DNA of 64,000 bases. It comes from Basidiobolus meristosporus CBS 931.73. Taxonomy: Eukaryota > Fungi > Basidiobolomycota. Positions 1,692 through 42,584 of the stretch are shown here, piece after piece; position 1 is the stretch's first letter; every line of letters starts with the position of its first letter. The notes under the pieces are model-generated. The model was given only the letters and a program-made list of their open reading frames with translations. It did not search any database and was not told the DNA's origin. The stretch is taken from NCBI GenBank assembly GCA_002104905.1, contig MCFE01000136.1, positions 62,001-126,000 of the forward strand, written 5' to 3'. The position numbers and the translations under genes were made by a program.

Positions 1692-2720
1692 TAGGCTTGT
1701 TCTGTTGGATAGTGCCACATTGAGCCATGAGTGCTAAATGATGCCATAGTGTGCCAGAGAGGCCAAGTGAACCTATACTTGGCCACAGAGTGTGAAAAGT
1801 GGTTCTGCATCTCCATGCAAAGCGGTGTGGTGGTGTAGAGGTACTCCTGGGAGAAGCTACACAACTCAAGGTGTGTGAGGTGTCTGATGGGTGCAATAAC
1901 CTCTGTGTCTAAACTGCTGGTGTCTTTGTCAATATGTCACTATGGTAAAAGCTCCTGCTTCTCTAGCTTCCTAGGTGCTCCAAGTGTCTCCAAAGGCCTC
2001 TGTGTGTCTTGTGCACTACCTTGAAAAGCTCCTTGATGGCAGGTCTGAGATGTACTGTTGAAGGCAGGTGCAGTGATCAGCTGCTAATCAATAAGGTAGA
2101 AGTGTTACTGATAGAAGGGATGATTTATTGATGAGGGATTGCTTTCCCTTAAATACTTTTCCTGATTGCCAAGTGATTACTAATGACAAGGTTCTAGAAG
2201 ATTCTAGGTATCAGTAGAATTCTTGATGACATCACTATGAGCTAAAAATATGCCAAGAATGTCCTGGAAGGTTCTAAAAGGCACAGCACTCTCAACCAAT
2301 CAGGAATCAGTAGTCTGAAACCTGTGCAACATAGAAATACCATATATGGTATTGAAATGGTAGAGATGGTAACACAGACCTAGGTCATGTGTCACGGGTA
2401 CTGACGCGGGTACTTGCCTTATATAGATACATCTACTGATCACAAAGCTGAATAACATCTGGGATAACTAATGCTAATAACTAATCAGGGTAAACATCAT
2501 ATGGGGATAATACTGATAATATGGGCAAAAAAAGAATGGGATAATACTGATAAGATAAAATATGGATAAGTATATCATAATGACTATATGAATAAACTTG
2601 TCTGTGGGAGGTATGTTTACCCTACCACAGCGGCCCCTGTGTTTCACCTATGATGGAGGAGAAAACCAATTTTTTGATATTTTTTTGTGGATCAATGTTG
2701 TGCAGGATGTGTAAGAGCAT
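1692..2720 (+). repeat. Left arm of the foldback MITE, interrupted by a solo LTR and truncated
   Basis: Starts TAGGCTTGTTCTGTTGGATAGTGCC and is colinear with about 37178-37410 once 1826-2629 is removed. It joins CACTA sequence at a CATA microhomology. Confidence 0.85.
1826..2629 (+). mobile_element. Solo LTR, lineage S, short subfamily (804 bp), TSD GCGG
   Basis: TGTGG...CCACA ends, flanked by gcgg on both sides. Near-identical to 6040-6843. The empty site is visible at about 37321-37340 and 241-260. Contains CCAAT, CArG, TATA-like and AATAAA motifs in that order. Confidence 0.9.
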
Positions 2721-4300
2721 ATTATTATCTGCATTGGAGATTCCCCCGCCATCAGCAAGATAGCAGGTTTTTCTGGGCACAATGGACGGTATTGCTGTTA
2801 TATGTGTGAGATCCAGGGGATTTACTCCATAACTCACACACTTTATTATTACCCAAACACCCGCACTAAGAACATCATCTTTCCACAGAGAGAACGTACA
2901 GAAGTAAGCATGCAATTGCAGCACACTTGGCAAGCTAGAAGCCATCAGCTGGAATATGGAATCAATTGGAAGCTGGAGATACTTAAGATAGAGGGTATCT
3001 GTTGGAGCAAAAGCTTTCCACTGGGAGCAATGCATTTGCTGTTCAACAATATCCCTATACTGATGACCAAGTTGCACATGGGGCATTTCAAGCTAAATGA
3101 GCCCTTCAAGATACCGGAGAAATTTGAAAAAATTGGCAAGATATTACAGAGTATCTGCTACCCTAAGCACTTCTCATGGGCTCCAATTAATATTCATATG
3201 CATATGCAATAATACAAATGCAAAGACTGGATGAACTGGATATGTATTTATTCAAGTGGTGTTCTGAAGCCATTACTACCAAGAGTACATTGGTATCATT
3301 GGGAGTCATATGTGGACATTGTAGGAATATTTATCCAGAAGCGGATCACCAATGCCAACTAGACGCATCTACAGCTGTTGTGTGAGGAGTTTGTGACGGG
3401 ATTTGAGCGGTTATACTACTAACATAAAGCTGAACGTGTAGATCTCTGCCACTACAGTATCCATTCTCTACTCCATCTTGCACTGTGTGTGGAGAACATT
3501 GGGCCTTGCTTCACCTTTTGGGAGTTTCCTATGAAGCATATGTGTGGGGAGATAGGAAGACAAGTCAAGTTGCAGGTACTACCATATCCCAATCTCATCA
3601 AGAATATTACCTTTAAGTCCGTCATAGATGTGATGAGTTGGCACATGGAGGACAGCCAGAAAGAGTTGGAAAATACTGAGGACAAATGTGCACATGGAGA
3701 CACCTATGCCTATGGCATTAAGAAGCTAAGCAGCCCCAATGCATGGGTAATCAGTTAAGTAATGCAAAGTTGGGTTGGGTGCAACAAGCAACTAATTTTT
3801 ATCAGGAAAACTCCACCAAGACATGCCAGATTTCTTGTGGTCACAAGCCAACTTCTACACCATTCAATACAGAATTCACACAAACAAAAGCCAGAGCACA
3901 CCTATAAGGGGAGCTAGAATCCAGCAGGGAAAAGGAATATATTGGCTAAATACCAAGAAGTTCTTTGCCAATATTCAGGAGGTATTCATGCCAGAAGTGG
4001 CAACAACCAAGCATATGTTTGCAAGATGTATATGCTACCAGCAGTACAAGGTATATGGCAACTTTGCAAGTATTGCACTAAAAAGCCGTAAAGTTGAGGT
4101 GATAGAAGTATGTCTATTGTGGCAGGTGTGCACGTTTGTAGAGGTTAGTTAGCAGGAGGCCATAGTTTTTTTGATTCAAACTATATGTGGAATACCCAAG
4201 GTTGTAGTGGGTAAGCAAATAAAGAAAGGTGATTCTACAGTGGAATATATGAATTGCACAAGGGGAGGTAGAAAAGGGAAATACCATTTGGTAAATTGGT
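2717..4300 (+). pseudogene. CACTA/EnSpm-type transposase, 3' half (DUF4218-type region), with stops
   Basis: Motifs SFPLGAMHLLFNN, YKCKDWMNW..IYS and HSLLHL...IGP...WEFPMKHMCG match known CACTA transposase C-terminal motifs. Confidence 0.85.
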
Positions 4301-4529
4301 ACGGTAGCATTATACATAACCAGCGGCAGGCCATCATACTGCCATAAAAAAAGCCATCAGAGTCTTGCTGCAAGGCCATCAAAATACCGTCAAGTTTCTT
4401 GCCATATAAGGCAATTGGAAGTCCTGGCCAACCGGATCCACTAAAAATAGTAATAGAGCACTGAAAGACCACAACAATAACATGCAAATATTGTCACAGC
4501 ACCAATCAAAAATTGTCAAGTTTTATCCC

Positions 4530-6877
4530 TTTATTTGGCTGAAAAATTTGCAATACACCGTCATGATCTTGTTATAAGATTGTCAGGAGGGTCACTAATT
4601 CCAAGCTGCTGTTATTATGACGGTCTCTGAACGGGATCTTGACGGATGATCTGGATTGGATCCACCCGCGGGACCAAATTATTTTTCATAGGGTTCAGGA
4701 GGAAGAATACAGACCGCAAGCAACATTGTCTAGATTGCACCAGCACGCCTTGCTGGATTCCTTACCATCTCTTGCAGCCACAGCATGCCAGCGCACATCA
4801 GTCCAGACTACGCCAACACCCTTTACCAGAACGCCCTGCATCAAGTCAACGCATGCGCTTCAGAGCAGAACTACTAGAACTTGCCAAACTGCTCATTTAG
4901 ACACAAGTCCATTAGAGTGGACCAAGTTGCATCAACATGCAGCATTACTTTGAACTCAGCCAAGGGCCATCTCAATGCGTTAAGTCATGCCTGCATATGC
5001 CGTTTTGCCTGACCATCAGCAAGTTACTTCTGGTGAACTGACTGATGGTGACCAACATGAAGTGCCTCAACCACCAGAGGCCTTGGCAAGTAAAAGAACA
5101 TGTCAGCACGTGGCACTCCAGGCTGGTTCAGTTGGCTCAGTGGGAGCAATTCAGCGCGGCCAAGCTGCAGCATTGCACTCATCAACTGGGAGGCAAAATA
5201 CTGACTACAAATACACAAGTAGCCAAGATGATAGTCAGCCAGGAAGTAGTATAGGTGTGCAAAGTGAGTCACTACCAAATGCTTCAGTAGTAATCCCTGT
5301 GAGAAAAAAACCCAGGAGAAGATGATGCAATTGCTTTGAATTGCTATTATTTGTAATGATCCCAACAACCCATTTTTTTTGCAATCCAAATCAAGCTATT
5401 GCAAATCAGTGATCATCAAATTTTTGATATAAGTAATATCAAGGTTGTCACACATTTGAGACAGAACCCCTATAAATAAACACCCTGCATATATATATAT
5501 CATCTGTAACACCAGTGCAGCTATTGGATCTGTTTTGCACCTACCCAATTGCTTGCATGCTAGCTATGACACCTTGCCCAATTACTAGGATCAGGGATTT
5601 ACTTGCTCAATGGGCAAAATGGGATATTTGATGGCAAATCAGGTAGATTGTTTAGTAGTCAATGAGCCAATTGGGAGCTGCCAGCTTCAGGATACTTTTG
5701 GACCAATTAACCACTGAGATACCATCCAATTGGAGTGATGGTAACTAAAATGGTAAGTATCAGTGTAGTTCATAGTGTGATACACATTTATTTCCATTTA
5801 CATTAAAGAAACATATCCAAATACTGGATTTTACCTGCCATAATAGTGGTATCCAATTGTGCACATGATGCAAACATTACAAGTTGACGTAATCATCCGT
5901 GCCAACCTCATTGTGTCAGATTGTGCCATAGTGTGCAAGATTGTCCCACATAATGTAAAATTGTCCTAGAATAATCCGGCCTACTGGTAGCTATAATATT
6001 GCACCTAATTGTTCTTTACAACCGTGGAATGCACCACGCTGTGGTAGTGTAGAGGTACACCTGGGAGAAGCTACACAACTCAAGGTGTGTGAGGTGTCTG
6101 ATGGGTGCAATAACCTCTGTGTCTAAACTGCTGGTGTCTTTGTCAATATGTCTCTATGGTAAAAGCTCCTGCTTCTCTAGCTTCCTAGGTGTTCCAAGTG
6201 TCTCTAAAGGCCTCTGTGTGTCTTGTGCACTACCCTGAAAAGCTCCTTGATGGCAGGTCTGAGATGTACTCTTGAAGGCAGGTGCAGTGATCAACTGCTA
6301 ATCAATAAGGTAGAAGTGTTACTGATAGAAGGGATGATTTATTGATGAGGGATTGCTTTCCCTTAAATACTTTTCCTGATTGCCAAGTGATTACTAATGA
6401 AAAGGTTCTAGAAGAATCTAGGGATCAGTGGAATTCTTGATGACATCACTATGAGCTAAAAGTATGCCAAGAGTATCCTGGAAGGTTCTAAACGGCACAG
6501 CACATCCAACCAATCAGGGATCAGCAGTCTGAAACCTGTGCAACATAGAAATACCATATATGGTATTGAAATGGTAGAAATGGTAACACAGACCTAGGTC
6601 ATGTGTTGTGGGTACTGACGTGGGTACTTGCCTTATGTAGATACATATACTGATCACAAAGCTGAATAACATCTGGGATAACTATTGCTAATAACTAATC
6701 AGGGTAAACATCATATGGGAATAATACTGAAAATATGTGCAAATGAAGAATGGGATAATACTGATAAGATAAAATATGGATAAGTAAATCATAATGGCTA
6801 TATGAATAAACTTGTCTGTGGGAGGTATGTTTACCCTACCACAGCGCGCCCTGGCATGGTACAATGGAACAAGTCTA
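4530..6877 (+). mobile_element. Type-3 TAG-TIR element (right end), interrupted by a solo LTR; left boundary uncertain
   Basis: Ends GGAACAAGTCTA at 6877. The part from about 4850 to 6039 plus 6844-6877 is the inverted copy of 9106-10344. Confidence 0.7.
6040..6843 (+). mobile_element. Solo LTR, lineage S, short subfamily (804 bp), TSD GCGC (left copy decayed to ACGC)
   Basis: TGTGG...CCACA ends and near-identical to 1826-2629. The empty site is the reverse complement of about 9125-9150. Confidence 0.9.
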
Positions 6878-6879
6878 AA

Positions 6880-7687
6880 GTCCTGTGACTGAAAAGTTCT
6901 GATCACATCAGGACACCATGAAAAGAGCATCAAAAAATAATTGCAACCATATTTCACAAAAACTTGGTCAAAATTTCTCTTCACAAATATACAAAAGTGG
7001 CTTTTGACTTGCTCTCTGTCAGTTTTCTCACTTTCTGATACCATACACTCTACCAACTCCTACATTTGTATGCTTTGAGTGGCAATTGCCTCTTTTTCAC
7101 ACTCCTTACTTCCTGACACTACCATTTCTCTTACTTTTCATGTATACAAATTGATTTATTTCTGTTGAAACTCCAGTTGAATCTCAATTGCCAGTTATAC
7201 TGACCTATACAATCTCCTATACCCTATACTAACATTAGACTATGTATTACCCGCTCATCCTGTTTCTGGACTATTTCCTGACTTCTCTGGGCCATTGCAT
7301 CTGTCCTATCAGCCACTGCACCTAATTGCTTCATTGATGCTTTGGTATGAGCTGAAAACATACTGCTGATACAGGTGGTGGTGATGTTATGATGGACAAT
7401 TGCTGGTCTTCAACCAAGGGTACTGCATTTGCTACATTCTCATCTGCATGAGCATACTGGTCAGCTTGTGGCTATGGAAAGTTTCTCAGTTACCTGCATT
7501 ACTGAGAGCCAGAGGAGTCCACATTAATACCTTTAGTAGGCACACTGCTAATATGGCCTTTTTGGGATGTAGCCCCGCTTGTTGCACTGAATGTCAAAGC
7601 AAGCTGTTGTCTAAATGTTCTTCTGCTGCCATCAGTGGTGTGGTCTGGTTGGGAAGCAGACATCATTGCTGTATTTTTTGGCGGCAT
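6880..7687 (-). pseudogene. Internally deleted remnant of the second gene (MPPKN...) of the CACTA-like element
   Basis: ATG at 7687 reads MPPKNTAMMSASQPDHTTDGSRR, homologous to 34998 (-) and 29881 (+). Confidence 0.65.
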
Positions 7688-7907
7688 ATATGGAAGTGAG
7701 TCAAACCAAAGGGGAAATAGTGTTACATACACATGCATATGTGGTACCACAACTTTATTGATATTGTTTACAATGGTGGGTCATCATTGAGTCTTACATT
7801 CATGTATGTGCAATGTCTCAAATACAAGACTGCCTTATACTCACATAAGTATTGACCAAGAAGTGATATCATAGCATTACATTGTTGAAGGTCAAACTGT
7901 TTGCCCC

Positions 7908-9105
7908 ATGGACAAGACTACCTTGACTCAATGCTGAAGAGAAGAGAAAAAAACCATGTGGCTATTGTGGCAAGCCTCTTGTCCATGAAGCACACAGACA
8001 GCATAGAAAGTATGATAGGATCACAACCAGTGTTTTGCCATGCAAGTCATATTAGACCATTCATTGGTCACTACTGTACCAATATTATCTTGCCAGCCAG
8101 TTGATACTTCTATTGTGGCACCTGTCCATCTTTGCCACCTTGCATAAACTAAGTCAGTTGAGCTTTTGATGCCTTTATGCTAACCTTAGCCATCTGAATA
8201 TGGCGTACAGAGTGATAGCTCTGACAAAAACAGTTCACTGGAGTATTGTGAGCCTATCTCCCCTAACAACAGTACCACATATGAGCCCCATCAAATCCTC
8301 ATATGCAATTAGACAACACCTGCTGAAACAAATGCCAAGGATACCTTATGGGGTCAAGTGAGCCCAGTAATCCATATACTAGTGAATGATGTAGTGATGT
8401 GGCTTGAGATATGGTGCATTTCCACTAATATAAGTAATGGATGCTTTGAGGATTTATTACCACTTCTTGCCAAAATCATTATGGGATGCCACTTACCATG
8501 TACATGGTATAAGTGGACAACCATCATGCAGCTGGCAACATACAAACCAGAGACTGTCCTGATTCCAGCATGTGTTAACAGTTGCATGGCAATCACATCC
8601 AAAAATGCTACCATTGCAACATGTCCAAATTGTCCAGAATCCAACAAAATTGAGGGAGAACATTGTTCACACTCTAGATATATTCCAGTAATACCCTGTC
8701 TTAGGAAGCTGATGCATTCCAACAAATATTGCAAGGCTATAAACTATTGCACTCATTATCAATCAAGCCCAAAAATATCCAATATATTCAATGGCAAATG
8801 TTGCAAATAGATAAGAAGCATAGGCTACTTTGAAGGTATATATGCCCATGCCTTTGACTTGGCACTTGCTGGATTCTCATCAAGCAAGTACTCTACCAGC
8901 AAATCCTGCTGCCCACTAATTCTCATCAATAGGAATCTGCCACCCATCTTACAGTATCAGAGCAATAATCTGACGGTAGTCTCACTGATATCTAGGCCCA
9001 AGTCACCACCCAACCTGGATAGCTACCTGTATCCATTGCTGGATGAATCTTGTATGCTTCCCAGCAGGATAACAGTAAATGGCTGTTATGTAAAGCACAA
9101 ATTAT
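7908..9105 (+). pseudogene. CACTA/EnSpm-type transposase, 5' half (Transposase_21-like), truncated by a TIR element
   Basis: Motifs PCGYCGKPL, IPACVNSCMA...CPNC, YIPVIPCLRKL and CPLILINRNLPP...LISRPKSPPNLDSYLYPLLDE. Confidence 0.88.
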
Positions 9106-10344
9106 TAGATTTGTTCCATTGTACTATGCTATGGCATGCAGCGCAATCCATGGTCTTTAAGAACAATAGGTTGCAATATTGTAGCTACCAGTAGGCAAGA
9201 TACCTCTTGGACAATTTTGCACCATGTGGGAAGATATCACACACTAAGCCACAATCTGACACAATGAGGTTGGCATATATGATTGCGCCAACATGTAATA
9301 TTTGTATTATGTGCGCAATTGGACACCTCTATTATGGTAGGTAAAATCCGGAATTGGACATGTCTCTTTAATGTATGGAGATAAATGCGTATTGCATTAT
9401 GAACTACACTGATACTTACTATTTTGGGAACCATTGCTCCAATTGGATGGTATCACAGTAGTTAATTGGTCCAAAAGTATCCTGAAGCTGTCAGCCCATA
9501 ATTGGCTCTTTGACCAATACACAAGCTGCCTGATTTGCCATCAAATATCCCATTTTGCCCATTGCCCAAGTAAATCCCTGATCCTAGTGATTGGACATAG
9601 CATCATAGCTAGCATGCAACCAGTTGAATAGGTGCAAAACAGATCAAATGGCTGCACTGGTGCCACAGGTGATGTATATATATGCAGGGTATTTATTTAT
9701 AGGGGTTCTGTCTCAAATGTGAGATGCCCTTGATATTGCTTATATCTAAAGTTTAGTGATCACCAATTTGCAATGGCTCAATGTTGATGGCAAAAAAATG
9801 TGTTGTGTTGATCATGACAATAATTGCAATTCAATGTAATTATATCATCTTCTCCTAGGTTTTTTTCTCACAAGGATTACTACTGAAGCATTTAGTATTG
9901 ATCCACTTTGCACACCTAAGCCATTTCCTTGCTAACTATCATTTTGGCTACTTGTGTATTTGTAGTCAGTATTTTGTCTCCTAGTTGATGAGTGTGATGC
10001 TGCAGCTTGGCCACGCTTAATTGCTCTGGATGATGCTATTAAGCTGGCCTGCAGTGCTATGCAATATCACATTCTTTTACTTGCCAAAGGCTCTGGTGTT
10101 GGAGGCACTTCACGTGGGTAATTATCAGTCAGCTCACCAGAAGAATCTTGCTGATGGTCAGATGTAATGCCATGAGCAGATGCAGCATGGTGTGCTGGCA
10201 AGGCCCTTGGATAAGTTCAATATGATGCTGCTTGTTGATGCAACTTGGCCCACTCCAATGGAATTGTGTCCAAATGAGAAGTTTGGCAAGTTCCGGTGGT
10301 TTAGTTCTGAAGCGCATGCAGTGACCTAACACACATTGACTCAA
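9106..10344 (-). mobile_element. Type-3 TAG-TIR element fragment (inverted copy of 4850-6877, without the LTR)
   Basis: Starts TAGATTTGTTCCATTG at 9106 and shows continuous reverse-complement homology to about 4850-6039. Confidence 0.8.
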
Positions 10345-10587
10345 TGTGCTAGCCCATCACATTCTTGACAGACTTGAAGGTAATAATCTTGATGAGACTG
10401 CAATATGGCAGTACCTGCAACTTGACTTGACTTCCTATCTTGCCACACATCTGCTCCATTGGAAACTCCCAAAAGGTGAAGGAAGGTCCAATATTCTCCT
10501 CACACCAAGCAAGATGAAGTAGAGAATGGATACAGTATGGTAGATATTTACATGTTCAGCTTCATGTTTGTAGTATACCAGCTCAAA
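10345..10587 (-). pseudogene. CACTA transposase fragment
   Basis: The minus strand reads ENIGPSFTFWEFPMEQMCG, homologous to about 3400-3640. Confidence 0.75.
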
Positions 10588-12103
10588 CATGTTTAGCTTT
10601 TCAGTATATCAGTATTATCTATCAAATCAGTAGCATTAGTCAGCAAATGAATCATCGGATCTTTATCAGACCAAAATAGATATATTGAGTAGGATCTTAT
10701 TGGGTGATGATGATGCAAACAAATGAGTCATCAGCCAAAGCATACATTAGAAAATACAATTAGTCAGCAATTGATCTGGCAAAGTGTATATAAGGAGCTG
10801 CTGGAACCGCAATAAAAATCAGCAAAAGTTTTGGTGAATACAGTACTAGCTAAACTCCCTATTCCTCTACAACTCTAATACCAACACTTGTAATATTGCT
10901 AGCAGCAATAACCAGAGGCTTCCCTCCTAAAGAAAGAAAAAGTTGCCCTCAAGATGTCCAAAAATCAAGAATGGAAGAATGCTATGCAGTAAATTCCTGG
11001 CAAACAGCAACAGTTACTCCAGATCCTTAGCCAGCAGCAACAAGGAACAACTACCATGGCCCAAAGCCAGCAAAACCCTGTCAAGCGCAACTTTGGTGTG
11101 AAAGTCAACTAGTACCATGGTAGATTCGATCAAAACCTGGGAACTTGGCTCTCCCAGATTGATGAAGCTTTCAAGACTAAGGGAATTGCTCCAGAAAGCA
11201 AGTTACATTATGCAGCCTATTACCTGGTAGATGCAGCTTTACAGTGGTACCACAACTAGATCAGGTCAGCCACTATGATGGGACACTCTACAATCTCTAC
11301 TGGGGATGTGTTTGTGTCAGAGATTCAGTAAGCCTTTGAGTCCCCACACCAACAGACACTACTAAGAGGAGAGTTGAAGACACTCAGACTGAAAGGAATG
11401 TACTCAGAGTATACCTATGAATATAGATGTCTGCTTGGATAAGTTGAAAGAATGGACCCCTGGATCAAGTTGAATACTTCATTGATGAGTTGAAAGAAAG
11501 TACTTGTAAGCAAGTGAATTATAGAAGACCTTGGACTATTGAAGTAGCCATTAAAATAGCCATTGACTATGACTCAGCTATGTTTGGAGTTGGGAAGCCC
11601 ACAATGACTTATCAGAGAGGCTACAATCACTATGAAAGAAAACAATCAGAAGCAGTGCCAATGGAAATAGATGCAATGCAGAAGAATGTAAGAGGAAAAG
11701 ACTTTACTTCAACTGCAACCAGCAGGGACATATTGCAAAGTACTGTGCTGCAAGAAGAAATGGATACCAGCCATCTAGAACCTTCAGCCATATTGAAGCC
11801 CTTGAGCATAGTAACATGGAGGATGAACTTGAAGAAGACTCAGGGCTCACCTTCCATATGACAGAAAAAAACCTATCCCAGATGACCCCAAACTTAGGAA
11901 AGCTATTATACTTGAATGGAGTAATCAATGAACTGCCTGCCAGGATCATGATTGACTCATGAACATGACATGAATATATGTCAGAGCAATTTGCATTGAA
12001 AGCTGGAATCAACTCAGAATCCACCAAATCAACATCAGTGCCAGCAGCATCAGCTGGGAACTATCAAATAATCAACCGTATCACTCAGCTAGTAAGGATG
12101 AAG

Positions 12104-15100
12104 TGTTATGATCTGCCGCTTGAGTGTTCAAGTTAGATCAGTTTTTAGTCAAATCAATTAGTATATGTTTAGGTTATCAGTATATCAGTATTATCTATCA
12201 AATCAGTAGCATTAGTCAGCAAATGAATCAGCAGATCCTTATCAGACAGAAATAGATATATTAAGTAGGATCTTATTGGGTGATGATGATGCAATCAGAT
12301 GAGTCATCAGCCACAACCTACATTAGGAAATACAATTAGTCAGTAATTGATCTGGCAAAATGTATATAAGGGGCTGCTGGAACCTCAATAAAAATCAGCT
12401 CAAGTTTTAGTGAATACAATACTAGCTAAACTCCCTATTCCTCTACAACTCTTATACCAAGACTTGTAACATTGGTAGCAGCAATAACCAGAAACCTCCC
12501 TCCTGAAGAAAGAAGAAACCACCCTCAAGATGTTGGACAATCAAGAATAAAAGAATGCCATGCAGCAAATCCTGGCCCTACAGCAACAGTTACTCCAGAT
12601 CCTCAGCCAACAGCAACAAGGAATGACTACCATGGCTCAGAACCAGCAAAGCCCTGTTAAGAACAACTTTAGTGTGAAGGTCAACCAGTACCATGGCAGA
12701 GTCAATGAAAACCTGGGAACTTGGCTCTTTCAGATTGAAGAAGCTTTTAAAGCTAAAGGAATTGCTCCAGACAGCAAGTTGCATTATGCAGCTTCTTACC
12801 TGGCAGATGCAGCTTTACAGTGGTACCACAACAAGATCAGGTCGGCCACTATGATGGGATGCTCTACAATCTCTACCTGGGATGAGTATGTGTCGGAAAT
12901 TCAGGATGCTTTTGAACCTCCACACCAGCAGACACTACTAAGAAGGAAGGTAAAGACACTCAGACAGAAAGGAATGGTGCAAGAATACATCTATGTGTAC
13001 AGATGTCTACTTGGACAAATTGAAAGAATGGACCCCTTGGATCAAGTTGAATACTTTATTGATGGGTTGAAAGAAAGAACTCACAAGGAAGTGAATTACC
13101 AAAGACCTCAGACTATTAAAGAAGCCATCAAGATTGCCATTGACTATGACTCAGCTATGTTTGGAGTTGGGAAGCCCACAGTGACTAATCAGAAAGGCTA
13201 CAATCATTATGAAAGAAGACAGTCAGAAGCAGTACCAATGGAAATAGATGCTATGCAGAAGAATCCTGCCTTGGAAGAATGTAAGAAGAAAGGACTTTGC
13301 TTCAATTGCCACCAGCAAGGACATATTGCAAAGTACTGCCCTCAGAGAAGAAATGGACACCAGCCATCAAGAACCTTTAACCGTATTGAGGCCATGGAGC
13401 ACAGTAACATGAAGGATGAACTTGAAGAAGACTTAGAACTCACCTTCCACATGACAGAAGAATACCTATCCCAGATGACCTCATACTCAGGAAAGCTATT
13501 ATACTTGAATGGAGTAATCAATGGAGTACCTGCCAAGATTGTGATTGACTCAGGAGCATTGCATGAATATATGTAAGAGCAACTTGCCTTGAAAGCTGGA
13601 ATCATCTCAGAACCTACCAAATCAACTTCAGTCTCCACAGCTGATGGGAACTCTCACATAATCAATTGTATTGCCCAGCCAGTAAGAATGAAGATCAATG
13701 ACTATGAAGAAGACCTACAGGCTTATATATTTGGGAACTGCAAGTTTGACCTTGTACTTGGAAAAACCTGGCTATTTTGTTGTAATCCATCAATCAACTG
13801 GAGAACCCATGCTACTCAGATCCAAAAAGACAACAAGACCTATGAGATATTACCTGCCAGGCTGGATTTTAACTTGGTCAATTCCAGTACGTGTGAGACA
13901 AGTGAACTTAGCAAGACCCAGTTCTGTAGAGCGCTTAGGAAAGGTACTTAGATGTTCCTCATGGCGGTTTTACAGGAGGATTCCTCTACCCCAGCACCCC
14001 AGCAGGTCCAGACTCTCTTGAAGAAATATTCAGACGTGTTTCCAGATGAGCTTGTAAGCCTACCACCAGTCAGAGATGTGGATCATGCCATTGACACAGG
14101 AGATAGCCCTTCAGTGAGCAAGACACCTTACAGAATGAGTCCATTGGAATTAGAGGAAATGAAGAGACAAATTGATCAGCTATTGGAGCAAGGATATATC
14201 AGGCCCAGCAAGTCACCCTGGGGAGCACCAGTGCTTTTTGTGAAAAAGAAGGATGGAACACCTAGGATGTGCATTGACTACAGAGCCCTGAACTCAGTTA
14301 CCGTCAAGAACAAGTACCCCATACCTTGGATTGATGAGCTTTTGGACCAACTTAAGGGAGCCACTATTTTCAGCAAGATTGACCTCATGTCAGGATACAA
14401 CCAGATTAGGGTGAAACCAGAAGATATCCCTAAGACAGCATTCAGGACCAGATATGGACATTACAAGTACTTAGTCATGAGTTTTGGCCTCACTAATGCC
14501 CCTGCAACATTCATGACGCTGATGCAGACTGTCCTTCAGGAGTACTTAGACAAGTTTGTGATAATCTACCTGGATGATATATTGATATACAGCAAGACAG
14601 AAAAGGATCACATGGTGCACATTGAAAAGGTCTTGAAGAAACTAAGAGAGAACAAGCTATATGGCAAGCTAGCCAAGTATGAATTCTTCAAGGAACATGT
14701 TGAATACCTGGGAAACATAGTGACTAGCACAGGAGTGACCTTAGACCCTAAGAAGGTTGAAGTTATCAAGAATTTGAAGCAGCCCCATAGCATATCAGAA
14801 CTCAGATCATCGCTTGGAATGGTTTCCTATTATTGGAGATTTGTCAAGTCTTTTGCAAGTATTGCAGCCCCTTTGACTGATATCCTCAAGAAAGACAATA
14901 CCTACAAGTGCAACATAGCTTGTGAGACTGCCTTCCAGACGCTCAAGAATGAACTTGCTAAGCTGCCAAGCTTAAGAATACCAGACTTCAGAAAAGAGTT
15001 CACTCTGTGCACAGATGCTTCAGATTATGCAATTGGTGGAGTGCTGAGTCAAGAACACAGTGGAAAGGACTACCCTGTTGCCTTTGAATCCAAGAAACTG

Positions 15101-21161: not shown

Positions 21162-24100
21162 TGTTATGATCTGCCGCTTCAATGATTAAGTTAGATCAGC
21201 TTTTAGTCAATTCAATTAGTTATATGTTTAGGTTATCAGTATATCAGTATTATCTATCAAATCAGTAGCATTAGTCAGCAAATGAATCAGCAGATCCTTA
21301 TCAGACAGAAACAGTTATATTAGGTAGGATCTTATTGGATGTTGATGATGCAATCAAATGAGTCATCAGCCACAGCATACATTAGGAAATACAATTAGTC
21401 AGCAATTGATCTGGCAAAATATATATAAGGAGCTGCTGGAATCTCAAAAAAGATCAGTTCAAGTTTTAGTGAATACAATACTAGCTAAACTCCCTATTCC
21501 TCTGCAACTCTTATGCTAAGACTTGTAACATTGGTAGCAGCAATAACCAGAAACATCCCTCCTGAAGAAAGAAGAAGCCTCCCTCAAGATGTCGGACAAT
21601 CAAGAATGGAAGAATGCTATGCAACAAATCCTGCCCCAGCAGCAACGGTTACTCCAGATCCTTAGCCGGCAGCAATAAGGAATGACTACCATGGCCCAAA
21701 GCCGGCAAAACCCTCTCAATGTAACTTTAGTGTGAAGGTCAACTGGTACCATGGTAGAGTCAATGAAAATCTGGGAACTTGGCACTTGCAGATTGAAGAA
21801 GCTGTCAAGGCTAAGGGATTTGCTCCAGAAAGCAAGTTACACTATGCAGCCTCTTACCTGGCAGATGCAGCTTTACAGTGGTACCACAACAAGATCAGGT
21901 CAGCTACCATGTTGGGAGCTCTACAATCTCTACCTGGGATGTGTTTGTGTCAGCGATTCAGGATGCCTTTGAGCCCCCACACCAACAGACACTACTAAAA
22001 AGAAAGTTGAAGACACTCAGACAGAAAGGAATGGCCTAAGAGTACATCTAAGAGTATAGATGTCTACTTGGGCAAATTGAAAGAATGGACCCTCTGGATC
22101 AAGTTGAGTACATTATTGATGGGTTGAAAGAAAGAACCCGTAAGGAAGTGAACTATTGGGGATCTCAGACTATTGAAGAAGCCATCAAGATTGCCATTGA
22201 CTATGACTCAGCTATGATTGGAGTTGGGAAGCCCACAATGACTAATCACAGAGGCTACATTCACTATGAAAGGAAACAATCAGAAGCAGTGCCAATGGAA
22301 ATAGATGCAATGCAGAAGAATCCCACCTCAGAAGAATGTAAGAAGAAAGGACTTTGCTTCAATTGCCACCAGCAGGGACATATTGCAAAGTACTGTCCTG
22401 AAAGAAGAAATGGACACCAGCCATCTAGAACTGTCAACCATATTGATGCCCTTGAGCATAGTAACATGGAGGATGAAATTGAAGAAGACTCAGAACTCAC
22501 CTTCCATATGACAGAAGAATACCTGTCCCAGATGACCTCATACTCAGGAAAGCTCCTACACTTGAATGGGGTAAACAATGGCGTACCTGCCAAGATCATG
22601 ATTGACTCAGGAGCATTGCATGTGTGCATATCAGAGCAATTTGCTTTGAAAGCTGCAATCAAGTTGAAACCCACCAAATCAACTTCAGTCTCAACAGCTG
22701 ATGGAAACTCTCACATAATCAACCAAATTACTCAGCCAGTAAGAATGAAGATCAATGACCATGAAGAAGAGCTACAGGCCTATATACTTGGGAACTGCAA
22801 GTTTGACCTTGTACTTGGGAAAACCTGGCTATTTTGTTGTAATCTATCAATCAACTGGAGAACCCATGCCATTCAGATCCAGAAGGACAACAAGACCTAG
22901 GAGCTAATACCTGCCAGACTGGATTTTAACTTGGTCAATTCCAGTGCATGTGAAACAAGTGAACTTAGCAAGACACAGTTCTGTAGAGCACTAAGATATG
23001 GCACCCAGATATTCCTCATGGCAGTATTACAGGTAGATTCCTACTCCAGTACCCCAGAAGGTCCACACTCTTTTCAAGGAATATTCAGTCATATTTCCAG
23101 AAGTGCTTGTAGGCCTACCACTAGTCAGAGACGTGGATCATGCCATTGACACAGGAGATAGCCCTCCAATGAGTAAGACACCTTATAGAATGAGTCCTTT
23201 GGAGTTGGAAGAGATGAGGAGACAAATATATCAGTTACTGGAGCAAGGATGTATTAGACGCAACAAGTCACCTTGGGGGCCACCAGTACTTTTTGTGAAG
23301 AAGAAGGATGGAGCACTTAGGATGTGCATTGACTACAGAGCCCTCAACTCAGTTACTGTGAAGAGTAAGTACCCCATACCGTGAATTGATGAGCTTTTGG
23401 ACCAACTCAACAGAGCCACTCTATTCAGCAAGATTGACAACATGTCAGGATACAACCAGATTAGGGTGAAGCCAGAAGACATCCCTAAGACAGCATTCAG
23501 GACCAGATATGGACATTACAAGTACTGAGTCATTAGTTTTGGCCTTACAAATGCCCCTGCAACATTCATGACCATGATGCAGACTATCTTCCAGGAGTAC
23601 TTAAAACAAGTTTGTCATAATCTACCTAAATGATACATTGATATACAGCAAGCCAGAAGGGGATCATTTGGTGCACATTGAAAAGGTCTTGAAGATGCTA
23701 GGAGAGCACAAGCTTTATGGCAAGCTACCCAAGTGTAAGTTCTTCAAGGAATATGTCGAATATCTGGAACACATAATGACTAGCACAGTAGTAACCTTAT
23801 ACCCTAAGAAGGTTGAAGTTATCAACAATCTGAAGCAGCTGCATTGCATATCAGAGCTCAGATCATTCCTTGGAATGGTTCCCTATTATTGGGGATTTTT
23901 CAAGTCCTTTGCAAGTATTGCAGCCTCTTTAACTCATATCCTCAAGAAAGACATTACCTACAAGTGGGACATAGCTTGTGAAACTGCCTTCCAGATGCTC
24001 AAGAATGAACTTGCTAAGCCTCCAAGCTTAAGAATACCTGACTTTAGAAAACAGTTTACTCTGTGCACAGATGCTTCAGATTATGCAATTTGTGAGTCTT

Positions 24101-25895
24101 GAGCCAAGAACACAGGGGAAAGGACTACACAATTGCCTTTGAACCCAAGAAACTAAACTCAGCAGAGCAAAACTATCCAGTCCATGAGAAGGAGATGCTT
24201 GCTATAATACACTGTTTGAAGACATGTAGATGCTATATTGAGGGAGTCAAATGCACTGTAAAGACTGATCATGCCTCCCTTAAGTATATATTTATTCAGA
24301 AGGCACTTGCTAGAGGAATGACAAGATGGAGTGAATACATTCAGCAATTGGACTTGGAGATTGTCTACTGCCCAGGTAATAACAACACATTTGCTGACAC
24401 CTTTTCAAGATTAGATCAAGTTGCACAACTCAACTTGGTGCATGAATCAGATTGGCCTAGCCTATTACCAAAGTACTTGGAGGACCAAGCCATTCCTGAT
24501 GAGGATGATGAAGATACCAAGAATATAATCCAGGATTAAGCCAGCAAATCTGTAGTACAGAATGAAACACTCTACCAAATTGCTGATGGAAGCCCTATTG
24601 CCTTTTGCCCTTATGTTGCTTATCTGGATTTAATACATAAGCTACACAATGGATATGGACATCTTGGAATTGAAGGAACCTATAGCCTTGTGAAAGCCAG
24701 TGCATGGTGGCCCAGAATGAAACATGACATTGTGATGCTAGTGAAAACATGCCCAAATTGCTAAATCAACCAAGGCCAGCCACACAGAATTGCTGAATTC
24801 TTTCCCTTGTAGAGATTCTATCTTATAGCAGTGCAAACTTTATGGCAAAGACATTGGAAGCTTACCTGGAAATGCAGCAGATCAAACACTTGAAAACTTT
24901 GGTATATCACCCCAGAACTGATGGAGTCACTGCATGGATTTATGGATTATTTGGAAATGCTTACCAAGTATGCAAATGGAGTTGTCAATAGATGGGATCA
25001 GTATATAGACCAAGCACTCTTTGCATGCAGAGTCAGAGTACACAACACCACCCAACAATTGCCATTTTACTTATTGTATGGATGTGAACTAAGAACTCCA
25101 GGAGATCTCACACAACCAAAGCTTACAGACATCTTAGAAGATGAACTCAGTCAGCCAAGTAGACACCAGCAACTGGAACAAAGACGTCAAGAGGCACAGA
25201 CCAAAGTATCTCAAAGGGCAGAAAAGATGAAGCAGAGATTTGATAAGACTATAGAACCATAAGCATTGACAGTTGGGAACATTGTTTTGCTAAGAAACAA
25301 CACTTGGAAGAAGTTTGAGCCACAATGGACAGGACCATTCAAGATCATCAGAGAATGTCCATTTCCAACTTACCAACCAGTGGACAAACAAGGCAATATC
25401 CGGGAAGACTTAGTGCAGAGGGACAGACTCAAGCTTGCAAGACTTGCTGATGAAACTGAACCATCAAGATATTAGTATCACAAGAAATGAGATTCAGGAG
25501 CACCCTCTCAACTTTTGCAGGAGAGATTATTAGGATCTGCTGCTTAAACGTTCAAGTAAGATCAGTTTTAGTTAAATCAATCAGTTATATGCTTAGGTTA
25601 TCAGTGTATTGGTATTATCTATTAATTCAGTAGCATTAGTCAGCAAATGAATCAGCAGATCCTTATCAGACAGAAATAGATATATTGAGTAGGATCTTAT
25701 TGGGTGATGATGATGCAATCAAATGAGTCATCAGCCACAGCATGCATTAGAAAATACAATTAGTCAGCAATTGATCTGGCAAAATGTATAAAAGGAGCTG
25801 CTGGAGTCTCAACAAAGATCAGTTCAAGTTTTAGTGAATACAATACTAGCTAAACTCTCTATTCCTCTACACCTCTTATACTAAGACTTTTAACA
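21162..25895 (+). mobile_element. Third Ty3/gypsy copy of the same family (LTRs 21162-21530 and 25528-25895; TSD ATTG), inserted in a CACTA transposase start
   Basis: Same LTR and PBS, with gag-pol remnants in ORFs 21732-25475. LTRs differ at about 35 positions by eye (roughly 90% identity). Integrase deletion near 24810. The host reads GCTATTG|ATTGCAACAAG. Confidence 0.92.
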
Positions 25896-29670: not shown

Positions 29671-29880
29671 TTTGATACTGAACAAATAATGCTATTAAAT
29701 CATTTTCTTGCCAATACTCATGTGTATTTAAGGCTTTCTTGTATTTGAGACATTGCACCTGCATTAATGTAAGAATCAATGATGACCCACCATAGTAAGC
29801 ATTAAAGATGAAAATGTGGCAACACATACATATATATATGTAATACCATTTCCCCTTTGGCTTGACTCACTTTGATATAT

Positions 29881-30900: not shown

Positions 30901-31141
30901 TCTGGGAATGGGAAAACCCTATTAAATAATTGATTGCACCCTAGAGATCACAAAAAACTTGCTCAAAATTTCTCATCACAAGACAAAAGTGGCTTTTGAT
31001 TGGTTCTCTGCCAGTTCTCCCACTTTCTGATCCCAAACACTCTATTACCTCCTACATTGGTATGCATTGATTGGCTATTATCTCCTTTTCAAATTGCTTA
31101 CTACCTGACTCAACTACTTCTCTTACTTTTCATGTATATGA

Positions 31142-32207
31142 TGTAGTGGGGTCACAGCAACACCCACTAACATATGTGCCTCTTCCCATATTTTCTACTT
31201 CCCTATTTCCTTACTACCCTTATTTTGGTTTTTTCCCATTTGTCATATCCAATCAGTACTATGCCATAAGCCATCTAACTATAATACCAGCTTATTTATT
31301 CCATAAGTTATCCCTCACTTTGTGTAAGCTTACTAGATGTAAGTGCTTCTATATTGTGCAAGTACCCACACCACAACCTGTGGCATATCATCAAAATATG
31401 TCACCATCCCTACCAGTTTCATTCCATATATGGTATCCCTATTTACACAGGTCTCAGAGTACTGTTCCCTGATTGGTTGAATATGATGTGCCCCCTAGAA
31501 CTTTTCAGCATCTACTTATAACATGCTTAGCTCAATCCAATATCATCAATATTTCTCTTGATCTGTGGAACCTTCTAGAACACCATGATTAGTAATCACT
31601 CAGCCAGTGAGAAAAGTATATAAGGGAGGCAATCCCCCAATAGTAAGCTATCATCCCTTTTATCAATATAGCAACTTGCTGATTTTTGTGATCACTCCCA
31701 CCTGCTGCTATCTGAACTTCCAATCCCAGACCACAAGACACTCCCAGGAAACCATGCTGACAGCCAACTGAGCTTGGAGGCACTCCATGTGAGGAGCACT
31801 CAGAATATGTATCTTTTGGTATATTTTATTCTTTCCCAAGTTTGGTCTTATACAGGCAAAGATACTTTTCTATTGTTGCAACTTTGGACCACAGCTGCAT
31901 TCCTATCAAGTCCCAGCTGGTGAAGTTTACAGTTGTTTTGACTTTGCAATCTTTAGTTTATTGTCATCTCAAAGGATGCTGTACTCATCACTTACTGTTG
32001 TTAAGATGCCATCTAAGTTGGGGATTGTAGCTCAAAAGTCTTCTCTTAAGAAGCTTGTGCATCATTGACCTTCATATTAGAGTAGAGACAGAACCCAAGT
32101 ATTTCTAATAAGCTTTTGCCGGAGGTTATTTCACTCAGGGAACACCCAACACAAAACACTTGAGACGTGTTGGATGTATCTCTCCCTTGGACTTATAAAC
32201 TACCAGA
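31142..32207 (-). mobile_element. Solo LTR, lineage S, long subfamily (1066 bp); TSD GCGA (left copy decayed to ATGA)
   Basis: Colinear with 36061-37129. Its reverse complement shares the start and internal blocks of 1826-2629. Empty-site homologue at about 7131-7165. Confidence 0.85.
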
Positions 32208-34998
32208 GCGAACAGATTTATTTCTGTTGAAACTTCTGTTGAACCTCAATTGCCAATTTTTTTAGCCTACAAAAGTACATATATCTACACTAACATCAAG
32301 CTCAACCCCACACTCTACAAGTAAATTCAACAAAATCAACCACTCAATATGTTTTTCTGCTGTAGCACTCTGTTTCCATGACTTTTGCATGAACCCTATG
32401 ATTTTATGCCACTGTTCATTCATTGGTTCCCATGATTCCTGGTCATCCGCTAGCACTGCAAGGTGTAGCTCCTCATTTGCCAGTCTTTGCAATAAATCCT
32501 TGCGTTATTCAAGTGTGTTTTCTTGAGCACCTCTCTTGATGAAGTGCAGTAACCTCTTGGTGTGCCAATTAATGTTTCAATAATCCGCTGAAGTCATTGT
32601 GATAACCTTTAGAGTTCTTGACATTGTTACTTTATCTATGAATGGGATCTGTAATATGTCAACAATAGAGGATGTGGAGGCTATTGTAGACAAATTGCCT
32701 TTCTCTGCAAACTCACCCTATGAAAAATTATTGTAATGATCCCATGAAAGGGCCATCACAAAGCTGAAATCCTGTGACTAAGAGGTACTGATCCCATCAG
32801 GACACTGTCCAGAGGCCATTGGCAAACAATTGCACCCTAGATTTCACAAAAAACATGGTCAAAACTTTTCATCACAACTGAATATAGGTGGCTTTTGATT
32901 GGTTCCCTGCCAGTTTGATAACTTTCTGATCCCAGACACTCCATCACCTCCTATATTTGTGTGTGTTGATTGGCAATTGCCTCATTTTCACACTCCTTAC
33001 TTCCTGACTCATCTGTTTCCCTTACTTTTCATGCTGACAAATTGACCTATTCCTATTGAAATTTCAGTTGTACCTCAATTGCCAATTTTATTGACCTATA
33101 CAAGTCCCTATACCTTACACTAACATTAAGCTCTACCCTGCACTCAGCAAGCAACTCCATTAAAATCCACCACTCAATAGGTATTTCTGCTGTAACGCTC
33201 TGATTTCACAACTTTGGTGGGAATCCAAAGGCTTTGTACCACTGTTCATTCACTGGTTCCCTCACATCCTGGTCTTCAACTGGCACTGCAAGGTCAAGTA
33301 CCTCATCTGCCAGTCTTTGCAATAAATATATGCAGTATTCAAGTGCACTTTCTGGAGCACTACTCTAGAAGAAGTGCTGCAACCTCTTGGTTTGCCTATT
33401 AAAGTTCCAAAATTCCACTGAAGGCACCATTATAGTCTTTTGAGTTCTTAACACTGTAGCTTGTCTGTCAGTAGGATTTCCACTTTGTCAACAATGTAGG
33501 ATATGGGGGCTGTGGTAGACAAACTGCCTTTTTCAGCAAACTCATCTACCTTACTGGAGTGTAGCTCAGCTGGCTGTGCTTCCAACTCATGTGAAAACAG
33601 CTGTAGATGTCTTTCCCTTTACCTTTTCCATTATCACTGCCAGGTCTTTTGCTGCTACTTTGTCTGAGTGCTTCTTATATTGAACTGTGTTTTCCCCTTG
33701 ATATGTTCTGCTCTGACACATCTGTTTTGGCCTGCTTGTCCCTTGCTGGCACTCTCCTGGCCACTTGATGTTTCCATTCTACTTGTTTGAGCCCTCAACT
33801 ATAGTTGTGACAGGCTCTTGTAAAAGCTGCTGGTTTTTATTACTACTAGGTCTTTCAGTGCCACTATGACTGAGTGCTTCTTGAGTGGTACCATGCTTTT
33901 ACTTGATAAATGTTTGCTGGTGTATCTGTGTCTGCCTACTTGTCCCAAATTGGCACTCTTCCAGCTGCTGGATTTCTCTTTGACACTTTTCTGGGGCTTT
34001 TGGCCCTGCTTGCAATAGGCTCTTGAGGAAGCTGCTGGTTTTCAGCCATGGCACCCTTGTTCTTCTGCCTTTGATAGCTTCTGCTATGCTTAAGATGCTT
34101 TCATAGCATACCAATGCTGGTCAAAAATCTGTTTGCCCATTTAAATCCAAGATAATGCTCATGGAACAAGTCAAGTGCATTCTGCTTAGCTTTGAGCTCC
34201 TGATAATCCCATGGTATGCAGGCCTTAAGGTGATGGCATGCCAGACTTCTGACAGCCTCTTGAATATTAGCCCACTCTTCATTATTACACTCAGCAGCTT
34301 TGTCAATCATCAATATCTTTTAATTTTTACGCTTTGCTACTAGCAGCACATTGCCTTCCTCTCACACTGTGAAAGGTTTTTTGGTGGGCTTTATCTTGGG
34401 CACTGTTATTGTGCTTCAAAGACTGTAGTGTGTTCCTCTGCTGCTAAATTGGGAAATGGCTCAATTGTTGGCTGTGACATTGAGCTAATTGAGTTCCTTC
34501 TTTGCGGCAAAGATACAGCTTTCTCTACCTGTGCTATGGATTGCTCTACATATATTAATTGCTCATCCTGTTTCTGGGCTATTTCCTGATTTCTCTGGGT
34601 CATTGCATCTATCCTATTAGCCACTGCACCTCACTGATTCATTTATGCTTTGGTATGAGCTGATAACATACCTGCTAACATTAGTTGTGGTTATGTTATG
34701 AGAGCCACTTGCAGGTCTTCAATTAAGAATACTGTGTTTGCCACATTCTCATCTGCCTGAGCATAACAGTCAGCTTGTGGCTCTGCAGAGGTTCTCAATT
34801 GCCTACTTAGCTGAGAGCCTGAAGAGTCCACATTATTACCTTCAGTGAGCACACTGTTAACATGGCCTTTTTTAGATGTAGCCCTGCTTGTTTCACGGAT
34901 TGTCAAAGCAAGCTGTTGTCCAACTGTTCTTCTGCTGCCATCAATGGTGGGGTTAGGTTGGGAACCAAGCAACTTTGCTTCATTTTTTTTGGCGGCAT
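32208..34998 (-). pseudogene. Longest copy of the second gene of the CACTA-like element, with a tandem duplication of its 3' part (about 32210-32740 vs 32990-33550)
   Basis: ATG at 34998 reads MPPKKNEAKLLGSQ. ORFs 34691, 34406, 34101, 33899 and 32262 are decayed pieces on one strand. Confidence 0.65.
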
Positions 34999-35220
34999 AT
35001 ATATGGAAGTGAGTCAAACCAAAGGGGAAATAGCATTACATATATGTGTGTATGTGGTGCCACAAATTTACTTACAATGCTTACTATGGCAGGTTATCAT
35101 TGAATCTTACATTCATGCATGTGAAATGTCTCAAATACAGGGCTGTCTTAAACTCATATGAGTATTGACCAAAAGGTGATATAATTGCATCACATTGTTG
35201 AGTGTCAAACTGTTTGCCCC

Positions 35221-37177
35221 ATGGACAAACTACTTTGACTTAGCACCATAAGAGAAGAGAAAAAAGACCATATGGCTATTGTGGCAAGCTTCTCAGCAGT
35301 GAAGCATTCAGACAACATAGGAAGTATTACAAGGATCATGGCCAGTGTGTTGCCACACAAGTCATATTTGATCATTCATCAGTCACTACTCTACTAACAT
35401 TGTCTTGCTGGCCAATTGATACTTTAAAATCAGCCCCTGGCTGTCTTTGTCATCTTGCGCAAACTGAGTCAGGTGAGTTTGTGACACCTGTAGGCGCACC
35501 TTAGCCTTTTAAATATGGTATGCAGAGTGATGGCTCTGACACAGAAGGTTGACTGATGGATTGTGAGCTTATCCCCCCTAACAATAGCACTGTATATGAG
35601 CCTGGTCAAATCCAAATATGCAATGAGATCACACCCATTGAAACAAATGCCACGGATACTTTATGGAGCCAAGTGAGCCTAGTAATCCATCTACTGGTGA
35701 GTGATGTAATGTTGTGGCTAGAGAAGTGGTGCATTTCTACTAATATCAGTAATATGGGCTTTGAGTATTTGTTACTACTTCTTGCCAAAATCATTCTGGG
35801 ATGCAATTTACCATATACATGGTACAAGTGGACAACCATCATGCAGCTGGCAACATATGATCCAGAGACTGTCCTGATTCCAGCATGTGTTAACAGTTGC
35901 ATGGCAATCACATCCAAAAATGCTACCATTGCAACATGTCCAAATTGTCCAGAATCCAACAACATTGAGGGAAAACATTGTTCACACTCAAAATATATTC
36001 CAGTAATACCCCATCTAAGGAAGCTAATGCAGTCCAACCAATGTTGCAAAGCTATACTGTTGTAGTGGGGTTACAGTGACACCCACTGACAGATGTGCAC
36101 ATTCCCATATTTTCTACTTCCCTATATCTCTACTACACTTATTTTAGTTTTATCCCATTTGTCTTACCTGATCAGTACTATCCTAGAAGCCGGTTGACTA
36201 TCCCACCTGCTTACCTTATTGCATAAGTTATCCCTCACTTTATGTAAGATTACTAGCTGTAAGTGCTTCTATATTAGGCAAGTACCCATGCCAGTACCTG
36301 CAACACATTATCAACCTGTGTAACCATCCCTACCAATTTCATACCATATATGGTATCCCTATTCTACACAGGTTTCAGAGTACTGATTCCTGATTGGTTG
36401 GATGTGCTGTGCCTCTTAGAACCTTTTGGCACCTACTTAGAACATTCTTAGGTCATTCTGATGTCATTAAGATTTCTATTGATATCCAGAACCTTCTGGA
36501 ATACCATGATTGGTAATCACTTAGCCAGTAAGAAAAGTATACGAGGAAGGCTAACCCTCAACAATAAATCATCATCCCTTTTATCAATATACCAACTTGT
36601 TGATTAGTGTGATCACTGCTACCTGCTGCTACCTGAACTTCCAGCCCCAGACCACAGGACACTCCCAGGAAACCGCACTGACAGCCAACTGACCTTGGAG
36701 GCACTACTTGTGAGGAATACTCACATTAGGTATGTTTATTATATTTGATTCTTTCCCAAGTCTGTTCTTGTACAGGCAAAGATACTCTCTGTCTTTGTAG
36801 CTATTGACCACAGCTGCATTCTTATCAAGTCCCTGCTGGTGGAGTTTACAGTTGTTTTGACTTTGGAAGCTTTAGTACATTGTCATCTCAAAGGAAGCTG
36901 AGTTCAGCACATACTTTTGTTAAGACGCCAACTAAGTTGGGGATTGTAGCTCAATAGTTTTCCCTTGACAAGCTTGTGGCTTTATTCCCCATCACATTAG
37001 ATTAGAGACAGAACCAAAGTATTTCTAGCAAGCTTTTGCCAGAGGTTGTTGCACCCAGTGAACACCCCACACACAAAACACTTGAGAAGAGTTGGATGTA
37101 TCTCTCCCTTGGACTTATACACCACCACACCATACTGCACTCAGTATCAGTCAAGCGCAAACATATCTATTACATAT
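35221..37177 (+). pseudogene. CACTA transposase 5' part, interrupted by a solo LTR (36061-37129) and truncated by the MITE
   Basis: IPACVNSCMA...CPNC...YIPVIPHLRKL, near-identical to 8358-8760. Resumes in register at 37130. Confidence 0.85.
36061..37129 (-). mobile_element. Solo LTR, lineage S, long subfamily (1069 bp); TSD CCGT (decayed to CTGT on the left and CCAT on the right)
   Basis: TG...CA ends. Empty-site homologue at about 8735-8760. Colinear with 31142-32207. Confidence 0.88.
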
Positions 37178-42567: not shown

Positions 42568-42584
42568 CTTGCCACACCATCACT

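Follow-up and report, generated by a model that had tools for sequence, protein, structure and literature searches.

The window analyzed here is the whole 64-kb stretch of the genome of the fungus Basidiobolus meristosporus CBS 931.73, and it is divided into two zones, a nest of decayed transposons at 1-44000 and genes at 44001-64000. Within the nest lie four non-coding solo long terminal repeats (LTRs), E1 to E4, each enclosed by a 4-bp target-site duplication (TSD), and all four TSDs trace to a central CG. The coordinates of the elements and the letters of their TSDs, listed below, are exactly those reported in the first-pass annotation of this DNA.

1826..2629, minus strand: E1, solo LTR of 804 bp, short subfamily, young; TG..CA ends, and an X4 contig that runs from it into a polypurine tract (PPT)
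1822..1825, plus strand: E1 left TSD, GCGG, from flank alignment to empty sites
2630..2633, plus strand: E1 right TSD, GCGG; its three empty-site homologues read GTAG, GCAG and GCAT
2147..2159, minus strand: TATA-like motif of E1 at sense position 471, by motif match; present at 471-474 in all four copies
2124..2129, minus strand: AATAAA of E1, 30 bp past the TATA-like motif, by motif match; shared with E2 and E4 but absent from E3
6040..6843, minus strand: E2, solo LTR of 804 bp, 95.5% identical to E1 by sequence comparison
6036..6039, plus strand: E2 left TSD, ACGC, from flank alignment to an empty site
6844..6847, plus strand: E2 right TSD, GCGC; its one empty-site homologue reads GCAT
31142..32207, plus strand: E3, solo LTR of 1066 bp, long subfamily, with one mutated end, by sequence comparison
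31138..31141, plus strand: E3 left TSD, ATGA, from flank alignment to empty sites
32208..32211, plus strand: E3 right TSD, GCGA, ancestor likely ACGA; both homologues read ACAA
36061..37129, plus strand: E4, solo LTR of 1069 bp, 83.4% identical to E3 by sequence comparison
36057..36060, plus strand: E4 left TSD, CTGT, from flank alignment to empty sites
37130..37133, plus strand: E4 right TSD, CCAT, ancestor inferred as CCGT; homologues read AACT and AAGT

To locate the insertion points, each element was removed together with one 4-bp copy, and the joined flanks were aligned to uninterrupted homologues in the window. Such homologues had been claimed for every site, and gapless alignments were indeed obtained to eight empty sites (three, one, two and two for E1 to E4, respectively). 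Because these alignments run without gaps across the site, they fix the insertion points and set the TSD at 4 bp; the alternative of a 5-bp TSD with shifted LTR ends is ruled out by them. The central CG is intact in five of the eight TSD copies versus none of the eight homologous empty sites, and the remaining three copies carry TG, TG and CA at the centre. The mismatched pairs (TG/CG and TG/CA) point back to CG. For comparison, CG occupies 0.2-0.7% of positions in the flanks of the four elements.

The outer letters of the TSDs are less regular than had been proposed. According to the first-pass annotation every mismatch is a CpG transition, the ancestral TSDs are GCGG, GCGC, GCGA and CCGT, and together they follow an NCGS rule on the element strand. 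The first letter of the E3 duplication (A/G), however, differs outside a CG context. Both E3 homologues have A at this place, which makes ACGA a more parsimonious ancestor than GCGA, and with ACGA the NCGS rule is broken, the central CG being retained. The ancestor CCGT of E4 is read from the TG/CA pair alone, and the two homologues of this site differ from it at two further letters. The strand on which the rule had been written also needs to be reversed, as the sense strand defined by the PPT runs opposite to it.

The observed/expected ratio (O/E) of CG per 4 kb is 0.03-0.21 at 1-44000 versus 0.71-0.94 at 44001-64000, with 173 CG in the 44-kb repeat zone and 870 in the 20-kb gene zone (1043 in the whole window). 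The depletion is specific to CG, for which the overall O/E is 0.10 in the repeat zone versus 0.81 in the gene zone, while TG and CA are raised to about 1.4. At the passage from the repeat nest to the gene zone, near 44000, the O/E of CG steps abruptly from 0.12 to 0.73, and only CG is depleted. As central dinucleotide, CG has a background of 0.39% of positions in the repeat zone and CG, TG and CA together one of 17.1%; TG and CA combined are thus about 40 times commoner there than CG. The chance of four central CGs in four TSDs had been put at about 6e-6 on an assumed 5% density, and this figure is reproduced (0.05^4 = 6.3e-6). At the density of the gene zone, 4.35%, the chance is 3.6e-6, or 5.7e-5 when multiplied by 16 for the post hoc choice of the dinucleotide. 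If CG, TG or CA is counted as a match, it rises to 8.7e-4, or 0.014 after the same multiplication.

Evidence from outside the window was sought in contigs from public sequencing runs of one study, four of seven of which contain part of the stretch. Contigs of the runs X1, X2 and X4 were aligned to 1816-1875, which comprises 10 bp of flank and 50 bp of LTR; 336 contigs aligned on these 60 bp in X1, 369 in X2, and none in X4. Contig depth along 1816-1830 falls steeply beyond the 4-bp TSD, a fall that was given no weight since it may depend on how the aligner clips, and summed depth was likewise not taken as a copy number. Those that depart from the reference at the LTR edge (28 in X1 and 32 in X2) have an AT-rich flank consensus that ends in GCGC, with an agreement at the LTR edge of 0.40 (X1) and 0.38 (X2). 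Departures one or two bases further out, at rows 1825 and 1824, give ACAG (10 and 7 contigs) and ATGG/CTGG (10 and 9 contigs), respectively, and these rows would correspond to the CA and TG decay forms of NCGG, as the letters imply. Flanks identical to the GCGG of E1 align through the edge and, therefore, are not counted. As a null model, the plurality consensus of 28 random flanks was simulated: a consensus with central CG arises with a frequency of 0.0028 when flanks are drawn from the repeat zone and 0.032 when they are drawn from the gene zone, and a GCGC consensus arises in 0 of 20,000 draws from the repeat zone and with a frequency of 0.0015 from the gene zone. About 20% of flanks would have to be CG-centred for an even chance of such a consensus, which is about 50 times the supply in the repeats, and the observed agreement fits, as a rough estimate, a CG-centred share of 50-70%. 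A CG preference that extends beyond the window is supported by the GCGC flank consensus, in the form of a consensus rather than of a per-copy table of TSDs.

That the repeats are LTRs is indicated by a contig of X4, a shallow run of 1.09 million letters. This contig of 923 nt covers 1875-2629 with five differences from E1 in 755 bp and continues for 168 nt past 2629, of which 30 letters are visible. The first 13 nt of the extension form a tract rich in purines on the minus strand, which resembles the PPT ahead of the 3' LTR in the gypsy family that lies in the same nest (the neighbour family) and in the metagenome loci L004, L029, L049 and L056. Such a junction argues that the repeat is an LTR, with sense on the minus strand for E1 and E2 and on the plus strand for E3 and E4, and the fact that a contig could be assembled from a run this shallow suggests a high copy number. 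Three of the four copies have TGT...ACA termini, and in E3 one end is mutated (TCTGG, not TGTGG). The perfect terminal inverted match is 6, 8, 1 and 3 bp for E1 to E4, with no similarity past about 13 bp. On the sense strand, AATAAA matches fall at 501-503 in the three copies that carry this motif. From the 4-bp TSD, the TGT end and the PPT like that of the neighbour family, the four LTRs likely belong to the Ty3/gypsy superfamily.

The relationship among the four copies is looser than the phrase "one lineage" of the first-pass annotation suggests. Identity is 95.5% within the first pair and 83.4% within the second, and between the pairs it is 71-76% across 270-430 bp only, plus similar ends; on these comparisons E1/E2 and E3/E4 can be described as two subfamilies of one lineage. 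In X5, another sample, sequence 80-90% like the conserved LTR middle (2267-2420) was found with few end sequences, which places a related LTR family in a second isolate or species. Each of the four elements, the young E1 included, contains 2-4 CG (O/E 0.05-0.10); the LTR lineage is intrinsically CG-poor though it inserts at CG.

E1 differs little from the X4 contig, whereas the repeats that host it have diverged by 11-20% from their homologues and contain hardly any CG. Given that E1 is young and its host repeats are long diverged and CG-poor, CG must already have made up less than 1% of sites when E1 inserted. E3 and E4 are 16% apart and have TSDs that are more decayed than those of E1 and E2, as would be expected if the duplicated CGs were methylated and deaminating (for general background on CpG decay see PMC13297926). 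The host site of E4 is a decayed open reading frame (ORF), a homologue of the ORF immediately upstream of a Transposase_21 segment.

Taken together, the observations, namely the elements themselves, the 4-bp stagger, the central CG, the PPT at one LTR copy and the CG centre in the pooled flanks, are probably best explained by solo LTRs of a likely Ty3/gypsy-type lineage whose integrase selects a central CG step through sequence and DNA shape. The integrase would cut the target with a 4-bp stagger and kink it at the central pyrimidine-purine (YR) step, as in 4-bp retroviral intasomes, and a general YR preference would be narrowed by base contacts to CG, in many cases with G or C next to it. This narrowing is proposed because TG and CA, abundant as they are here, would be preferred under a plain YR rule. 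The internal region would have been lost after insertion through LTR-LTR recombination, and both duplicated CGs would have decayed to TG or CA by methylation-driven deamination, giving rise to mismatched TSDs in the older copies. The target would not need to be methylated.

Several points weigh against this explanation. The TSD ancestors of E3 and E4 are reconstructions. X1 and X2 make up one sample, in which a single LTR end of the E1/E2 subfamily was read and which yields a plurality consensus, not single TSDs. In 21-39% of simulations, a flank common to four to five contigs was enough to dictate the last four letters of the consensus, and such sharing would not push the agreement above the observed values. 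Taken alone, the CA and TG rows carry little weight (null frequencies of 0.10 and 0.67), and at place 1829 in X2 three contigs with an agreement of 0.57 have an A-rich flank without CG; the loose-end rows, moreover, comprise 12 listed and 36 unlisted. Neither the parent element nor its integrase was found in the window, among 35 proteins or among 78 metagenome loci, so that the Ty3/gypsy membership and the base contacts of the integrase are what we infer. No match to the PPT-side letters was obtained in the window with up to three mismatches, which places the parent element outside the window. The proteins of the neighbour family, searched on the window with tblastn, retrieved only that family and one copia element, and the conserved LTR-core motif had no match in the metagenome contigs. 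A protein search with the neighbour integrase gave 35 hits; none is labelled Basidiobolus, and none has at its end the peptides that should precede the PPT. None of the 78 metagenome loci related to this integrase matches the four LTRs; only L004 among them is a complete element with a TSD, and the flanks of L049 and L056 are unmatched. No row resembling a primer-binding site occurs among the 12 loose-end rows listed at the LTR edge (36 others being unlisted).

An alternative proposal is that only an ordinary central YR preference is at work and that the CG excess reflects a small sample together with a consensus from a few contigs with a common flank. TG and CA centres do exist, in three of the eight TSD copies and in rows 1825 and 1824, and the agreement values allow a shared flank in 4-5 of the 28-32 contigs. 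Nonetheless, such a preference predicts TG or CA rather than CG at the abundances of the repeat zone, and the mismatched TSD pairs trace to CG. The X1 and X2 consensuses agree at 18 of 26 first letters (hand count), as expected without a common flank from about 24 shared loci (18.3 +- 2.4), and we consider this proposal improbable. A different origin, as non-autonomous DNA transposons of the Ginger1 type that move by cut-and-paste with the known CCGG/CCGT preference, would account for the TGT termini, the 4-bp TSD and the central CG, and one inferred TSD is CCGT. The terminal matches given above are far shorter than the terminal inverted repeats (TIRs) of 40-270 bp found in Ginger1 (PMC2836005), the X4 contig passes from the element end into a PPT and not into a CG-centred flank, and the TATA-like and AATAAA motifs lie on the PPT-defined strand, which makes this origin very improbable. 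Membership of the four elements in Ginger1 was rejected on the length of these terminal matches.

The first-pass annotation also raised methyl-CG as a possible target of the integrase, which would thereby steer itself into silenced repeats. In this reading the integrase, or a host factor bound by it, would recognise methylated CG, and the silencing mark would be the address of gene-poor, safe sites. All four copies fall within the CG-depleted repeat zone, the gene zone having none, and insertion in proportion to the CG now present would give this distribution with a chance of (173/1043)^4, about 8e-4 (calculated by hand); the depletion is, furthermore, specific to CG. For B. meristosporus, several DNA methylase entries, together with CDCA7F and HELLS, appear in a supplement table of PMC10538959. 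A 1992 paper cited in PMC5408687 reportedly deals, to go by its title, with how CpG methylation affects the integration of retroviruses in vitro. Against this, all transposons of the window (CACTA-like, gypsy and copia) share the CG-poor zone and every one of them avoids the gene zone, so that purging from genic DNA by selection suffices for the location of the LTRs, and the older copies met more CG in the repeats than remains today. Drosophila has next to no CpG methylation. GC-rich targets are also used by Drosophila elements of the ZAM group (PMC5408687). The table of PMC10538959 gives no 5mC (5-methylcytosine) value for this species. On balance, the methyl-CG reading appears unlikely. Were it true, the host silencing mark would have become a landing address, and heterochromatin would be targeted by a DNA mark without a chromodomain: a fungal LTR integrase would read methyl-CG directly, find the last CGs of old silenced repeats and duplicate each one hit, for an element with almost no CG of its own (2-4 per LTR).

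For the neighbour gypsy family, noted earlier as free of such a bias, the TSDs GAAG and ATTG are confirmed (n = 2). Its copies lie at 12104-16996 and 21162-25895 on the plus strand, with an older copy at 10589-12103 that resumes at 16997. The family encodes Ty3 capsid, reverse transcriptase, RNase H and integrase with a GPF motif; it is non-chromodomain, and the integrase tail has no Pfam match. The copy at 12104-16996 has LTRs 2.2% apart and few stops, and it sits in the protease region of the older copy of the same family. A complete short-LTR relative of this lineage was found on a metagenome contig (L004:97-4740) with the 4-bp TSD ATAG, and the 4-bp stagger therefore extends beyond the B. 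meristosporus genome.

The base of the nest consists of several decayed CACTA/EnSpm-like elements that are inverted relative to one another. A Transposase_21 (tnp2) match is found at 8811-9191, and 19-bp tandem repeats occur within the host repeats at 321-366 and 37197-37274; these subterminal tandem repeats are presumably tied to CACTA elements. A minus-strand copia element at about 38236-42218 lies between LTR-like repeats at 37922-38235 and 42216-42569 (the locus spans about 37922-43405), and at 42706-43405 this locus has extra LTR-like pieces and a 78-bp tandem duplication, with no clean TSD readable. In the gene zone, an ORF at 48274-50217 encodes an acyl-CoA oxidase with 100% identity to a Basidiobolus meristosporus protein, in confirmation of the host, and four more proteins of the same species have 89-90% identity, which fits a duplicated genome. 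Near this gene are a CorA transporter and a Pumilio-repeat protein.

Among known systems, fungal Ty3/gypsy elements share with the four LTRs the TG..CA ends, the PPT, the nesting in repeat blocks and, in some cases, a 4-bp TSD. The statement that most fungal LTR elements make 5-bp TSDs holds in so far as 5 bp is described as the size in most LTR elements (PMC6839031), and Cryptococcus TCN3 has 5-bp TSDs of variable sequence (PMC12810828); it needs qualification given the 4-bp TSDs of Mycosphaerella families (PMC4522978), of the neighbour family and of L004. In contrast to E1 to E4, these fungal 4-bp TSDs (ACTT, CGAC, GAAG, ATTG and ATAG) have no central CG. A search of the full-text literature gave no CG-centred TSD for a fungal LTR element and no TSDs for Basidiobolus, although Repbase or subscription papers could hold one.

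For Drosophila elements, the errantiviruses ZAM and Tirant with their CGCG target had been named as a precedent. The likeness lies in the short TSDs made by LTR elements and in a target that is GC-rich and palindromic; the difference lies in an env-bearing insect lineage there and a fungal host here. The Drosophila host is not known to strip CG from its repeats. The preference for CGCG is described for the ZAM subgroup (PMC5408687) and so the precedent exists, but CGCG is centred on GC, one base off, and Ginger1 and the YR rule of 4-bp intasomes are nearer. Membership in the ZAM/Tirant group was discarded, as CGCG is the sequence of none of the four TSDs, whose centre traces to CG and not to GC, and the host is a fungus. 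For 22 Drosophila families with sufficient data, the target motifs of LTR elements are reported as AT-rich throughout (PMC3276498). Intasomes that cut with a 4-bp stagger put a sharp bend into the target at a central YR step, and the core for prototype foamy virus (PFV) is VYRB (PMC4422553). With PFV, Moloney murine leukaemia virus (MoMLV), porcine endogenous retrovirus (PERV) and xenotropic murine leukaemia virus-related virus (XMRV), the four elements share a bendable central YR in a 4-bp TSD, and three of the four inferred TSDs fit VYRB; those viruses, however, have a weak preference across all YR steps, and here CG is used despite the commoner TG and CA.

The closest likeness is to Ginger1, which has a gypsy-type integrase fold, CG-centred 4-bp TSDs and TGT termini. 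Its TSDs are CCGG in 75% and CCGT or ACGG in 24% of 112 elements, and its transposases, known from Hydra and others (four animal species), are close to gypsy integrases (PMC2836005). YPYY and GPY/F motifs, with no RT, are the marks of a Ginger1 transposase. It differs in being a DNA transposon with TIRs in animals, whereas here an LTR with a PPT is found in a fungus, and the outer letters are looser here (GCGG, GCGC, ACGA and CCGT, with GCGC in the pooled flanks), one of the four inferred TSDs being CCGT. CG-centred integration in this window thus resembles the Ginger1 type but is carried out by an LTR element, which is a member neither of Ginger1 nor of the ZAM/Tirant group. Gypsy-clan integrases with a CG-centred target were known from Ginger1; the full-text literature searched gave no such LTR element from a fungus, nor one from a host with repeats depleted of CG about tenfold. 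The element would pick the rarest step (0.4% of positions) of the DNA in which it persists. Dated insertions, through their duplicated CGs, could act as clocks of CpG decay for an early-diverging fungus, and a young, high-copy family, with the non-CG neighbour family as control, offers a natural test of whether methylated cytosine in the target can steer integration.

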